A stretch of DNA of 64,000 nt from a virus: positions 32,001-96,000 of IMG/VR virus record IMGVR_UViG_3300046522_000297. One strand, 5' to 3'. The stretch's first letter is position 1. Each line of letters begins with the position of its first letter. The notes beneath the pieces were generated by a model. It was not told the origin of the DNA. It did not search any database and was given only the letters and a program-made list of their open reading frames with translations. Below are positions 7,968 through 46,512 of the stretch, piece by piece. A program made the translations under genes and the position numbers.

Positions 7968-8190
7968 TTCACAAATATAAAAGTAGTGCTATAATAAATG
8001 TATATGAACACTTTCAACACTAACCCCCATTTCTCAGCAATTAAAGCTTCCTTCAAGGCGGCCAATATTGTTGCGCCCGTGGTTTTTGTAAATTCGTATA
8101 ATAGTGAGGGGATCGGCGGAGCTTAATGTAACTCTACATTAGTTAGCTTTAACCGAACCCACTCTCCCACAAGGTTAGTGGGTTTTTTGT
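7968..8190 (+). promoter_or_regulatory. Sigma70-type promoter, 40-codon leader ORF (8004-8126) and terminator/antiterminator ahead of the tRNA cluster
   Basis: TTCACA-16-TATAAT with TG extension; terminator AACCCACT/AGTGGGTT-TTTT; GAGGGGATCGG can pair with CCGAACCCACTC. Confidence 0.55.
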
Positions 8191-8201
8191 TTTATAACTA
8201 T

Positions 8202-8276
8202 CGGAGTGTAGTCCAGTGGTAGGTCGCCTGCTTTGGGAGCAGGAACTCGAAGGTTCGATTCCTTCCACTCCGACCA
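8202..8276 (+). tRNA. tRNA-Pro(UGG)
   Basis: Cloverleaf, TT-TGG-GA loop, CCA. Confidence 0.9.
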
Positions 8277-26413: not shown

Positions 26414-26501
26414 GCGCCGGAAGCCCTATTGGTCGGAGGCCCTCGACTCATAATCGAGCTGCGAAAGCACGTTGCGGGTTCAAAGCCCGCCCGGCGCACC
26501 A
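26414..26501 (+). tRNA. tRNA(CAU) Met/Ile2 with long variable arm
   Basis: CTCGA-CTCATAA-TCGAG, A73, CCA. Confidence 0.85.
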
Positions 26502-26519
26502 ATAAATAGTTGTTAAGAT

Positions 26520-26607
26520 GGACCGGAAGCCCTACTGGTCGGAGGCCCTCGACTAATAATCGAGCTTCGAAATCACATTGCGGGTTCAAAGACCGCCCGG
26601 TCCACCA
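26520..26607 (+). tRNA. tRNA(AAU), Ile-reading paralog of the CAU tRNA
   Basis: CTCGA-CTAATAA-TCGAG, GGACCGG/CCGGTCC, CCA. Confidence 0.8.
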
Positions 26608-27577: not shown

Positions 27578-29692
27578 ATGAATCACTCCGTAGCAACTAT
27601 CCCGCGTCGTCCGCTCGCTACCGCCGTCACTCAAGCTCTGTCGGCTCTCAAGACGGTACGTGCTGCTGCAGCTGAGGATGAGTCGAATTCGGTCAACACC
27701 GAACTCGCCATTTCCCCGGAACTCGACGCTGCAGTCGAAGACGTCATCGCCCAAGCCAAGGCCCTGGAACTCCTGGAGCCGGTCAAGGCAGAACTGCCGA
27801 AAGTCGACCTGAGCACGGTCGTCGAATTCGTCCCGGTCAAGAACAAGATCGGCCGCTACCGCATCGTCTCGACGAAGCTGCGCCAGTTTATCCACGATTC
27901 CACCGATACCGGCTTCATGTCGGAAAAGATGCTGGAATCGATCCACGACAGCGAAGAGCAGAAAGCAGCCCGTCTGCGTATCTCGCTTATCGATCTGGAA
28001 GCGATGTTCCGCAGCTTCCACGACTTCGCCTCGATCGATGAAGACGACGTCAAGTCCTCGGCTTCCGGCCTGACCTGGCCCGAATACAAGACGATGTTCG
28101 ACGACCTGAACCAGCGTTATAGCACCTGGCTGGAAATGCGTCGTGCTGCTGCACAAGCCAAACATGACGCACACATGGCTCAGTTCAACAGCGGCGTGGC
28201 GGACTACGAAAGCACGCTCGTCGGCCTGAAGGGTGAATCGATCAAGCGTCTGAACGGCACGGCGATTCCGTACGTGTTCGATATGGGTGGCCAGAAGATC
28301 GTCGGCAAGATCACCAATGCCCGTGAACAAGAACACCCGATGATGGGTAAGTGGATAGAAGTCCGTTACGAAATCCACACCCACAACGGCATCGGCCTGT
28401 CGAGCACCAACCACAAGCTGGATATCCCGATCTACGAAGGCGTAGCTTCGCTGGAATCGCTCGGCCTGACCCGCCTGGACAAGTGCTCGGAAAGCGTGAA
28501 AGCTGCCCTGATCGCCCGTGGCGAGAAGTACCTGAAGTTGCACGAGAAGCCGGCGTACGTCATGTCGACGGGCAATATCACCCGCAAGGAAGGCCGCAAC
28601 ACGTACCAATTCAACGCCAAGGGTCGCGCCATGGTCGATATCCTCGGCCATCGTCAGATGGATACGAACTACTACGCACACTTCCACGTGGCGGATCCGG
28701 ACGGCATGGAACCGGACGACTACATCCCGATGTCGAAGGTCGACGACTACATCAAGATGAGCTGCAGCCCGTACCTGTACGGCTTCTCGTTCAAGGCCAA
28801 ACTCTGGGGCGAAATGCTCGTCGACCAAATCACGGAAATCCAGTTCCGTGACGACGTCTACGACAAGCTGGTCCTGGACGATGCCACCAAGCGCATGATC
28901 TTCGCTCAAGTCACCGATACCGGCGACGCTGACACAGATCTGATCGCTGGTAAAGGCGTCGGCTGCATCGCCCTGCTGGAAGGTCCTCCGGGTGTCGGTA
29001 AAACCCTGACGGCGGAAGCTGTCTCGGAAACCCTGAAGCGTCCGATTTACTATGTGTCGGTCGGCGAACTGGGTACCAGTGCTCGTTCGCTGGAAACCAA
29101 CCTGAAGGAAATTCTGGAAATCGCAGCTTCCTGGAATGCCATTCTGCTGCTGGACGAAGGTGACGTGTTCCTGGAACGCCGTGACAGCCACGATCTGGAG
29201 CGTAACGCCATGGTTGCCGTGTTCCTGCGTCTGCTGGAGTATTTCCCGGGCATCATGTTCCTGACGACCAACCGTGCCGACAACATCGACCCGGCCTTCG
29301 AGTCCCGCATCACGCTTTGCATCCACTACAAGGATCTGGACGCAAGCAGCCGCTTCAAGATCTGGACGAACCTGCTGAATGCTGCTAAAATCAAGAGCAT
29401 CAATACGGAAGCCATCGATCGTCTGTCGCACTTCAAGCTGAACGGTCGTCAGATCAAGCAGGTGATCAAGTCGGCGGGTGCACTGGCTCGTTTCGAGAAG
29501 CGCAACCTGGAATACGACGACTTCATGACCGTCATCCAGCAGAAGGAAGACTTCAAGAAGGCCACCGTCTACCAGCTCGGCAAGGGTCTGTCTGACGACA
29601 AGGCAGCAGCACCGGTGAAGGAAGTGGGCCTGGTCCGCCGTGTGTGGAACGCCCTGGTCAACAACGGCCAGAGCCTGGGTCAAGGCCAGTAA
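27578..29692 (+). CDS. AAA+ ATPase
   Basis: Walker A GPPGVGKT, Walker B LLLDE, LTTNR, DPAFESRI. Confidence 0.92.
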   Translation: MNHSVATIPRRPLATAVTQALSALKTVRAAAAEDESNSVNTELAISPELDAAVEDVIAQAKALELLEPVKAELPKVDLSTVVEFVPVKNKIGRYRIVSTKLRQFIHDSTDTGFMSEKMLESIHDSEEQKAARLRISLIDLEAMFRSFHDFASIDEDDVKSSASGLTWPEYKTMFDDLNQRYSTWLEMRRAAAQAKHDAHMAQFNSGVADYESTLVGLKGESIKRLNGTAIPYVFDMGGQKIVGKITNAREQEHPMMGKWIEVRYEIHTHNGIGLSSTNHKLDIPIYEGVASLESLGLTRLDKCSESVKAALIARGEKYLKLHEKPAYVMSTGNITRKEGRNTYQFNAKGRAMVDILGHRQMDTNYYAHFHVADPDGMEPDDYIPMSKVDDYIKMSCSPYLYGFSFKAKLWGEMLVDQITEIQFRDDVYDKLVLDDATKRMIFAQVTDTGDADTDLIAGKGVGCIALLEGPPGVGKTLTAEAVSETLKRPIYYVSVGELGTSARSLETNLKEILEIAASWNAILLLDEGDVFLERRDSHDLERNAMVAVFLRLLEYFPGIMFLTTNRADNIDPAFESRITLCIHYKDLDASSRFKIWTNLLNAAKIKSINTEAIDRLSHFKLNGRQIKQVIKSAGALARFEKRNLEYDDFMTVIQQKEDFKKATVYQLGKGLSDDKAAAPVKEVGLVRRVWNALVNNGQSLGQGQ

Positions 29693-43778: not shown

Positions 43779-43869
43779 TTCAATAAATTTGAAAAGCTTG
43801 GTATAAGGAAAATAGAGGAGGATAATATCCAAATCTACTTTCCTTTCTTTTTACTATAACTATAAGATC

Positions 43870-44130
43870 ATGTCTAAGAACACTAACGAAATCAAACTCA
43901 CTGCCCGTAAACTTGCAATCCTGTCGAAGAACGTCGCCCGCCACCGTAAGGCAGCCGACATGACGAAGGCAGAATTTGCTCGTAATACCACGGTGAGCCG
44001 TGACACTATTCGTCGTATTGAGACTCTCCCTGAGGGTTACATTCCGTCGATCGACACGGTTAAAGCACTGGCGGATTTGGCAGGTGCATCTGTTCAAGAA
44101 ATCCTGACTACCAAACTTGTCTTTCAATAA
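43870..44130 (+). CDS. XRE-family HTH regulator
   Basis: MTKAEFARNTTVSRDTIRRIE...PSIDTVKALA. Confidence 0.85.
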   Translation: MSKNTNEIKLTARKLAILSKNVARHRKAADMTKAEFARNTTVSRDTIRRIETLPEGYIPSIDTVKALADLAGASVQEILTTKLVFQ

Positions 44131-44217
44131 ATAACGAAGGCATGGTATAAGGGAATTGTAAGGGAGAGTCAATCTCTCTTACGTATGTTTAACCGTTAGT
44201 TTTAAGGAAGTTCCCAA

Positions 44218-44403
44218 ATGGCATCTACCCTCAATGTCACCGAGTATCTCGAAGAAGGCTTCGCTCTGATCGAAGATACCGAGGGCACGTATCTGGCGTC
44301 TAAACATACTGATGCAATCGTTGATATTCCCAAAGTAATTCCCCCAGTCATTCCTACTCGTAACTGCATCTTGGTGCAGTCTCGTGAAGCGATGCTGACC
44401 TAA
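44218..44403 (+). CDS. small hypothetical protein
   Basis: 61 aa, AAGGA RBS, promoter at 44143. Confidence 0.55.
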   Translation: MASTLNVTEYLEEGFALIEDTEGTYLASKHTDAIVDIPKVIPPVIPTRNCILVQSREAMLT

Positions 44404-44409
44404 TCTTTA

Positions 44410-45845
44410 GGTCCGAGGAGCTTCGGCTCCTCTCCACGATCAAGTATAGTAGTCTAATAAGACAGGAAAGATGTAACAGCTTTCTAAATTCTTTCGGCTG
44501 CGCCGATAGGCCTGGAGGTTCACGTCAACGACGTGACGTCCGTCGACCAGGTCCTCTGCAGCTGAAGAGCTCATCTCCTTGCAGCTCACCTCAACGAGTT
44601 GATCGTTTCACCCAGCCTGTGATATACTGCAGGCTTCACAACTTAATGTATGTTAGGCCTTGAGACGAAAGTCTCTTGAAGTCTAAGGTGGATGCCACAT
44701 TCACTGTGTACTTCTCCTCCTACGGGGAGAAAAACCTGGCGGCCTCCGGCCACCGGTGTGATCTCGAACCCGGGTACTGCTTAGCTCCTTTAATAAAGAA
44801 GTTAAACCAGGTACCTGGAGACCGGATGTGAGATCACAAGATTAAGTTATTTTCCGTCCTTAGTATTAAGCAAGTAACACCTTGCTACAGAAGGTAACCT
44901 TCTGGTACTAGCTTGGGCTTTATCGCTACGCTCAAGCCCAGAGATGAATAGACTCCCTGGGATCCGCCGGCGCCGATCGCCGACGTATCTACGTCTCTTA
45001 TGTGTAAGGACACTTTCGAACTTTGGTACAACAAGGGTATTACGCCTTTGTATCACGAGGCTACCTCGTGGGAGTACACTGGAATCAATGATTAATCCTG
45101 CGCTCAAGCATTGAGAAGTCAATGCCCGCTTGGATCATCGAGCAAAGTTCAATACCGGGTATGGGCACCGCCTCACTAAGAAAAGGGCCTTTCGACTTTA
45201 GTATTAAAGATAGAGAACCTATCTTCTACGATGCAACATTGTAGGTTTAGAGTTCTCATCACCTCTGGTGACCCCACCTCAGCTACATCCCTCTCTATGC
45301 TGTGGGCGCTCCGCTCAGGATGTATCAGAGGAGTGGTAACCAGAGGAGATGAGTAAGAAAAAGGACCGAGGTACTACTACTAATAAGATTTAATTAGTGG
45401 GCCCTGGGAGCACCTGGTACGTAATCGAGTAAAGTCAAAGGACGTTAGCATAAAAGTAAATGCACGGGTCGTCGGGCCCGACGTAAATCTCCCGGATCTC
45501 AATGACGAAACGTTGAGACGTCCTCCGTATATTATTATTGCCACAGCGTATGTTCCTTTGTGAATAGGCTAGCCAAGCAGAGAGAGGCGCATATATCCTC
45601 TGCAGGTGTAGACGCTGCCGTCATTTCGGTCTCCTCCCATAGATATAAAATCTGCCAATTAAAGTGAGAGTAGGTTCTCACCCAAACGACAACTGTCGGC
45701 GGTGGATGGAAATTCTATGGAGCGTTGATACACCAGACAACTCGGAAAGACGGGTAACGTAGCTGTCACTACGCCGGTGCTCCCGATGTGGACACATCGG
45801 TTGAGCCTCTCGATCCCTACCGTAAAACGTGGGGATTTTTTTTAG
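44410..45845 (+). ncRNA. Candidate long structured non-coding RNA (about 1.4 kb)
   Basis: No credible ORF; many hairpins with UUCG/UACG/GAAA loops; ends in a terminator at 45812-45843. Confidence 0.55.
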
Positions 45846-45869
45846 CTTAATCAAGGTCGTCCGAGCAAC

Positions 45870-46512
45870 TGTCCAGAATTTTTGGACACTGTCCATTTTC
45901 TCAGGACATCTGTCCACCTCTATACTATCAACAAACAAAGCATATATAGAAATTAATGTCCAATTGTCCAAAACGTCAAAAATAAAATTGGACACTCTAA
46001 GTCTTTGATTTTAAAAAGAAAAAGGGCAAAGTGTCCAGTTTTTTGAGATTTTCTGAAAAACATACACCAACCTTCGTGGAGAGAGTTGGGGAGAAATCAG
46101 TAGAGCCTACCCTACCCTCAACAAATCTGCTTTTATGAATTCCCCTATTCCCCCTCTATTCACTGCCTCTCTATATATATAATATATAATATATAAATAA
46201 TAAATATATATATATATAGGTAATATGACGCAGTTTTTTGACTCGTAGAGGTTGATAGGGCTTCTCCCATTTTTCCAAAAATTCTGCGATATTTTTTATA
46301 AAGGTGGGTGTATGTTTTTCAAAAAATCGAAAAAAACTGGACACTTGGCCTATAAGGCTAGTAGACACAAGCGAAAAGGGTGTCCAGTTTTATTTTCCTA
46401 TTTTTGGACACTCTGGACACCTTCTCTAAATGTCTTTATTTTAAAAGGGTTTTAAGTGTCCAGTGCGCACAGTGAAATTGGACACCTGTCCAAAAAACTG
46501 GACACTTGTCCT
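45870..46512. repeat. Symmetric iteron array around an A/T tract: probable replication origin
   Basis: 16 exact TGTCCA/TGGACA copies (8 per side), 40-bp inverted repeat 46029-46068/46306-46346, pure A/T tract 46172-46218. Confidence 0.7.

Follow-up and report, generated by a model that had tools for sequence, protein, structure and literature searches.

Tandem paralogous junction modules make up a predicted large non-coding RNA of a tRNA-rich phage

What fills the roughly 1.4 kb of a phage genome in which no protein appears to be encoded is the question raised by this locus. The window, that is, the whole 64,000-nt stretch that was analysed, comes from a phage record of IMG/VR (114 kb, estimated completeness 71%), in which it spans bases 32001-96000, and the sequencing runs that contain the region come mostly from rhizosphere, soil and root samples. 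Rfam finds 19 tRNAs in the window and ARAGORN 21, and the phage also encodes RtcB, ribonucleotide reductase, NAMPT, a YqeY-like protein, NT5C and a protein with a HAD 'Swiss-army-knife' RNA-repair domain. The closest cultured phages are distant, with flanking proteins sharing less than 40% identity at best. One tRNA with a CUA anticodon (amber suppressor) at 11313-11388 is called tRNA-Pyl by ARAGORN and scores 63 bits with Rfam; two 88-nt 'tRNAs' (Met CAT and Ile AAT) at 26414-26607 are called by ARAGORN only, lie below the Rfam tRNA threshold and may be spurious or aberrant. For the ORF-free stretch the original prediction had offered a large RNA of the GOLLD/ROOL class or a new one, a cluster of small RNAs, or a replication primer for the adjacent iterons.

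The lack of a credible ORF was confirmed. Between the stop codon of a 61-aa ORF (at 44403) and an intrinsic terminator (45812-45845), positions 44405-45845 contain no credible frame under genetic code 11, the longest + strand ORF being 56 aa, and recoding of TGA as W, TAG as Q or TAA as Q, each tried singly, opened no long frame. Relative to the homologous stretch of a related phage, substitutions fall on the three codon phases 25/18/18, i.e., without codon periodicity, and the indels measure 1, 2, 6, 7, 12, 26, 37, 73, 93 and 276 nt, most of them not multiples of three. Stop recodings, substitution phase and indel lengths thus all speak against a protein-coding gene under an alternative code. 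In the 61-aa ORF (44218-44403, + strand), seven of nine substitutions occupy third codon positions; based on this contrast with the even phases downstream, we consider the small ORF to be coding and the region to be its untranslated 3' continuation. The protein has no Pfam or PHROG match, and among 5.8 billion proteins it appears in only two protein clusters, encoded on contigs of 181 kb and 185 kb.

The + strand of the region is predicted to fold strongly. Its minimum free energy is -523 kcal/mol, compared with -436 +/- 9 kcal/mol for shuffled sequences (25 dinucleotide shuffles; z -9.5), and the reverse complement folds less strongly (z -4.0). In sliding windows of 200 nt, z is mostly -2 to -4 within the region, whereas the flanking genes give about 0 to -1. 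The hairpins that had been named beforehand are all present, namely GAGGAGC-UUCG-GCUCCUC at 44415-44432, GAGAC-GAAA-GUCUC at 44661-44674 and CUCC-UACG-GGGAG at about 44717. The long helix UGUGAUCUC/GAGAUCACA is likewise found in the sequence. The long-range pairs of the full-length minimum-free-energy structure are broken in the related phage and were rejected, and we therefore see no evidence for a global fold.

The region sits at the end of what appears to be a compact transcription unit, with both the upstream promoter and the terminator found as originally claimed. A phage-type promoter (TTCAATAAAT, 11 nt, GGTATAAGG) at 43779-43808 on the + strand precedes a gene for an 86-aa HTH protein (Cro/C1-type, Pfam HTH_31/HTH_3; 43870-44130, + strand) and may be an upstream transcript start. 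A second promoter of the same type (44123-44152, + strand) lies directly 5' of the small ORF and the RNA, followed by an 11-pair leader hairpin (44157-44183, + strand), and the upstream box TTCAATAAAT is identical at both promoters, at 43800 for the HTH gene and 44144 for the small ORF. The + strand unit ends in the terminator at 45812-45845, with a nine-pair stem and U8, 25 nt ahead of the first TGTCCA iteron; the related phage has another stem sequence at the equivalent site, followed by U7. In the 114-kb record, the + strand contains 42 copies of the heptamer GGTATAA and the - strand three, mostly preceded at about 22 nt by a TCAAT-like box; this strand bias identifies the heptamer as the phage's own promoter type. 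Its commonest context in the record is tTGGTATAAg, copies of which (e.g., window positions 10973, 25656, 43800 and 44144) provide a ready-made map of the phage's early/middle transcription units.

Contigs from RNA libraries cover this unit. In a root-metagenome RNA library (X14), a single 2172-nt contig with a depth of 21.5 extends from 43830 to about 45753 (~19 nt beyond 45734), and contigs from another study (X3) begin at 43814 and end near 45724. Both sets contain the HTH gene together with the RNA, both stop before the iterons, and their sequences represent variants ~90% identical to the window. A further RNA-library run (X22) covered only two short pieces, and the parts it leaves uncovered are uninformative. 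The extents of the X14 and X3 contigs are as expected if transcription begins at the 43800 promoter and stops close to the terminator. Contigs that run from promoter to near terminator suggest transcription of the unit but do not prove it: contaminating DNA could also give rise to them, and strand, ends and processing are not readable from contigs. Within the region, a sigma-70-like promoter at 44599-44628 (TTGATC, 18 nt, TATACT, with TG before it), in the hairpin just 5' of the second module described below, is nearly invariant in the related phage and does not exceed chance statistically; it could be the source of a shorter transcript containing M2-M6. Internal promoters at the module starts were rejected because helix P1 pairs across the motif and covaries between paralogues. 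As a genome-wide motif, TTAGTATTAA is not enriched, with 7 matches versus 4.8 expected.

Folded piecewise, the RNA resolves into five tandem paralogous multi-helix modules, M1-M5 (136-248 nt), each with its own closing helix P1, followed by a distinct domain, M6, rather than one undivided giant fold. Each module closes on itself in both phages. The shared plan comprises P1 (7-8 pairs), a GUAU/GUAC junction (J), hairpin P2, hairpin P3 (7-9 pairs with a G[YNA]C triloop) and further hairpins, and (A/U)CGAG stands just 5' of the returning strand P1' in four of the six copies (M1, M4, M5 and a solitary copy, S1). The GUA opposite GA beside P1 may resemble a loop-E/S-turn motif. All elements lie on the + strand. 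The array opens with M0, the UUCG-capped hairpin at 44415-44432, located just past the stop codon and without a U-run; in the related phage a different sequence forms the same 7-bp hairpin. The divergent M1 (44436-44606) has P1 CGAUCAA/UUGAUCG, J GUAUAGUA, P2, P3, a long variable hairpin, AACGAG and P1'; it folds closed alone in both phages, its core is 100% identical, and its inner hairpin keeps its shape with a different sequence. An inter-module hairpin (44613-44635) presents the sigma-70-like -10 box TGATATACT in its loop, with TTGATC before it. M2 (44638-44848) consists of P1 AACUUAAU/AUUAAGUU, J GUAUGUUA, P2, P3 GGUGGAUG-CCA-CAUUCACU and three more hairpins, and has the strings UUAAUGUAU and GGAUGCYACAUYC in common with S1.

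The next three modules are the most alike. M3 (44855-45013; 66 bits with a covariance model, R1, trained on M3-M5) has P1 GUCCUUA/UAAGGAC, J GUAUUA, P2, P3 CAGAAGG-UAA-CCUUCUG, P4 and P5; M4 (45017-45152; 61 bits) has P1 GAACUUUG/CAAAGUUC, J GUACAA, P2 and P3 CACGAGG-CUA-CCUCGUG, in which the C-G pair 45056/45068 is U-A in the related phage. A variable linker (45153-45191) of 39 nt separates M4 from M5; its counterpart in the related phage is 141 nt long and contains hairpins and a (TTCTAGC)5 tandem repeat (L003 8566-8600) that is absent from the window. M5 (45192-45439; 68 bits) has P1 GACUUUA/UAAAGUC, J GUAUUAA, P2, P3 CUACGAUG-CAA-CAUUGUAG, a 100-nt hairpin, a variable hairpin, AUCGAG and P1'. 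A variable hairpin block follows (45440-45534), missing in the related phage and replaced in the RNA-library variants, then M6 (45535-45735), a hairpin and a nested long-range three-way-junction domain, and finally variable 3' hairpins (45736-45811) that lead to the terminator. As the strands given here for P1 of M1-M5 and P3 of M2-M5 illustrate, P1, P2 and P3 differ in sequence among modules yet always pair, which represents covariation among paralogues.

The comparison with the related phage separates what is conserved from what is exchanged. IMG/VR yielded this one relative on two contigs, one of them complete at 184,920 nt, and an exact 23-mer matched only those two. Its homologous stretch (L003 7542-9210) aligns as blocks between which whole pieces are replaced: window positions 45441-45533 are absent, the 3' hairpins and terminator stem have other sequences, and a 276-nt insert with a tRNA-Met(CAU) gene occupies window position 44854, between M2 and M3. 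The inserted tRNA lies at L003 8072-8147 and is followed by a short element at about 8165-8255 with a T-loop-like box, GGUUCGAUUCC, closed by CCGAAU/AUUCGG; this tRNA-minihelix-like element is not called by ARAGORN. The variants X14, X3 and X2 have changes at the same between-module sites as the relative. From P1 to P3, the module cores of the two phages share 96-100% identity, versus 82-86% for the neighbouring NT5C and HAD genes, and the inter-module linkers are only ~50% identical, with large gaps. Where hairpins have been replaced, unrelated sequences adopt the same shape in the same place in both phages.

Structural covariation among homologs, the lack of which the original prediction had taken as grounds for abandoning a structured RNA, is visible in this comparison. 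Across the well-aligned parts there are seven double compensatory pairs, where chance would give ~0.4 (estimated from ~6% divergence and about 300 pairs), along with nine changes to or from G-U and 27 unpaired substitutions; ten pairs are broken, most of them bordering replaced hairpins, where the alignment is uncertain. Within M6, five double changes and two wobble changes are kept among 47 predicted pairs and none is broken, and these changes account for 12 of the 16 differences. With one aligned independent relative and difference tables of three variants, this covariation consists of few events.

A solitary sixth copy of the module, S1 (2168-2306, + strand), was found far from the array by a descriptor built from M3-M5 only, for which shuffles give 0.43 chance matches per genome. 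It forms the 3' half of a stand-alone RNA of ~340 nt (1967-2320, + strand) that lies where ORFs are lacking; the phage-type promoter TTTGGTATAAT stands at 1965-1975, a T7 run follows at 2314, and the 5' half (1978-2167) folds separately with z -2.2. S1 itself folds with z -4.76 and is conserved in the related phage, in which the stand-alone RNA is 88% identical. A looser descriptor, which asks for a GUAY junction after the closing helix P1, then P2, a P3 capped by a G[YNA]C triloop and P1' within 280 nt, returned exactly five matches per genome (S1 and M2-M5). All five are on the sense strand, and the two strands of 114 kb + 185 kb gave nothing beyond these; M1 fits the descriptor only loosely. 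Model R1 scores M3-M5 at 60-68 bits in both genomes, which makes them clear paralogues, gives S1 12 bits (E 1.6) and misses M2. The proposed homology of S1, M2 and especially M1 to M3-M5 therefore draws on the shared architecture and the short strings UUAAUGUAU, GGAUGCYACAUYC and ACGAG.

Based on these data, the stretch is very probably a real, strongly structured non-coding RNA of the + strand under purifying selection, forming the untranslated tail of the small-ORF unit, transcribed from the promoters at 43800 and/or 44144 to the terminator at 45845, and arranged as beads on a string from M1 to M5, then M6, with S1 apart. The part of the original prediction that saw a large, non-coding, + strand structured RNA thus stands, in accordance with the fold statistics, the compensatory changes and the RNA-library contigs, and the part that proposed GOLLD/ROOL membership does not. 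Searches of the region with all 4227 models of Rfam 15, as had been suggested, gave no true match at E<=10, including OLE, RNase P, tmRNA, group I/II introns, self-cleaving ribozymes and riboswitches; at gathering thresholds the window contains tRNAs only, and at E<=10 there are chance-level fragments, the best scoring 15-20 bits against cut-offs of 39-100. In separate searches, GOLLD (RF02032; a 416-position 3'-domain model with a gathering score of 150 bits) matched neither the window's record nor the complete relative at E<=10, and the same was true of ROOL (RF03087; 574 positions, gathering score 99.1 bits), for which the control genomes were also without ROOL and provide no positive control. 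Neither Rfam nor the literature searched yielded a description of such an RNA or of an anatomy of tandem paralogous junction modules.

This RNA family also seems, from sequence searches, to be confined to a narrow clade of uncultured phages. A blastn search of the region in distant mode against 50,697 phage records gave no match, tblastn reached no more than distant phages (<40% identity) with the flanking proteins and nothing with one of 208 aa, and a metagenome search with the HTH protein returned only an unrelated HTH protein of 44% identity. Scanning IMG/VR for the motif pair shared by S1 and M2 gave six loci, which were rejected as chance because none folds like a module. A 24-mer of M5 had no match in GTDB genomes and hence offered no clue to the host.

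What such an RNA does is best approached through its module. Independent folding, freely swapped linkers, a tRNA gene that would be excised from between modules in relatives and the solitary S1 point to the module, and not the whole 1.4 kb, as the likely working unit. The fixed junction and P3 triloop frame, the covarying helices and the drifting first two letters of the triloop would be expected of a shape-specific recognition surface rather than an antisense seed. With one conserved surface present five times on an abundant early/middle transcript, the RNA would offer a multivalent binding platform, a sponge or scaffold whose target would be a protein or RNA of host or phage, possibly as part of the phage's large tRNA and RNA-repair programme. 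We hold this account as a whole, a structured modular RNA with the module as its working unit, to be the best explanation, at somewhat better than even chances, and propose a sponge or scaffold function of the module array more tentatively, as an idea that may well prove wrong. The 61-aa protein of the same unit is acidic and lacks the look of an RNA-binding protein, which counts against the binding-platform reading. CsrB and RsmZ are multi-site sponge RNAs that have many copies of one recognition element per transcript; the array would resemble them as a multivalent platform, binding being a working model only in its case, and differs in that their elements are simple GGA hairpin loops whereas the modules are junctions of 130-250 nt, with no sequence relation. 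A bolder form of the proposal, which we regard as improbable, sees in the array a covalent multimer of a single RNA protomer, an intramolecular counterpart of GOLLD/ROOL assemblies, or else a decoy whose five valencies would disarm a host RNA-targeting defence or RNA-processing factor.

The array could instead be one giant RNA with a global tertiary fold or a higher-order assembly like the GOLLD and ROOL cages, with the modules playing the protomers. GOLLD shares with it a very large, ornate, phage-borne RNA in a tRNA-rich context, a variable part and sometimes a tRNA in a linker, and that setting is present here, as tRNA-Met lies inside the homologous stretch of the relative; ROOL, likewise large and structured, occurs in phages and prophages, often close to tRNA islands, and is abundant, with no partner known. 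The contig at depth 21.5 in an RNA library would also suit such an RNA. GOLLD, however, is ~800 nt long compared with ~1.4 kb for the array, and combines a variable 5' half with one conserved 3' domain where the array has repeated paralogous modules; internal repeats have not been described for ROOL, and both are known as homo-oligomeric RNA-only cages from cryo-EM. The GOLLD and ROOL models without a match and the broken long-range pairs argue against this possibility, and a fixed global geometry is hard to square with linkers of 0-276 nt that are exchanged freely. Kissing contacts between the loops of different modules, among them a ring like that of phi29 pRNA, were rejected since the complementarities, sought by eye, are not kept in the relative and show no covariation. 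We consider a single giant fold or assembly unlikely.

Among the originally predicted options, a cluster of small RNAs comes closest to the tandem paralogous folding modules seen here. A precursor from which small RNAs are cut, each pairing in trans with mRNAs of host or phage or serving as decoy of a particular RNA, is also unlikely in our view. The beads-on-a-string layout and the occurrence of one module within the stand-alone S1 gene would suit a precursor, and a tRNA between modules in relatives implies that RNase P and RNase Z would cut the chain. T4 species 1 and 2 RNAs are small, structured and stable RNAs transcribed together with phage tRNA clusters, from which tRNA-processing enzymes release them, and the array would be like them in yielding structured RNAs from a polycistronic precursor, but the array is 11.5 kb from the phage's last tRNA and has no sequence relation to them. 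The conserved letters of the modules lie in junctions and a 3-nt loop with no long single-stranded seed, and the triloop letters drift between close relatives (UAA/CUA, CAA/UAA, CUA/UUA), which argues against base pairing in trans.

A link to replication, with the RNA as primer, transcriptional activator or insulator for the adjacent element of TGTCCA iterons and an A/T core, appears very unlikely. The RNA ends 25 nt before the first iteron and transcription is directed towards the element, but a strong terminator intervenes, the RNA-library contigs end before the iterons, and solitary S1 is not at an origin. The element exists in two copies, at window positions 45846-46512 and record positions 27912-28494, both entered via the same junction (terminator, TTTTTTAG, GTCCAGAATTTTTGGRCACTGTCCA), which gives two origin-like elements per genome. 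The second (iteron copy at record positions 28031-28494) follows a gene for a 238-aa protein with no such RNA, and by this arrangement the RNA is not an obligatory partner of the origin-like element. Still less probable are tandem ligand-sensing aptamers or another cis element through which read-through or mRNA stability would be controlled in the small-ORF operon. The modules, as closed multi-way junctions in which junction letters are conserved, do resemble aptamers, and S1 is followed by a T-run 22 nt ahead of a gene, but no riboswitch family matches, there is no gene 3' of the array, and as regulators five copies past the sole ORF would make no sense. A functionless spacer, or decayed genes that fold well by accident, would agree with the narrow clade but can hardly be reconciled with module cores better conserved than neighbouring genes, compensatory changes and a shape kept where sequence is replaced.

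Very large structured RNAs of bacteria and phages are rare (rRNA, group II introns, GOLLD, ROOL and OLE), and their functions have long been puzzling. The array RNA is longer than GOLLD, shows selection on structure and has cores better conserved than the neighbouring genes. Its modular anatomy makes it experimentally tractable, as a single module of 130-160 nt such as M4 or S1 can be studied and copy number varied. If the covalent multimer or five-valent decoy were true, it would represent a new class of large functional phage RNA derived from module duplication. Our findings highlight how large RNAs may grow, by duplication of a folding unit.
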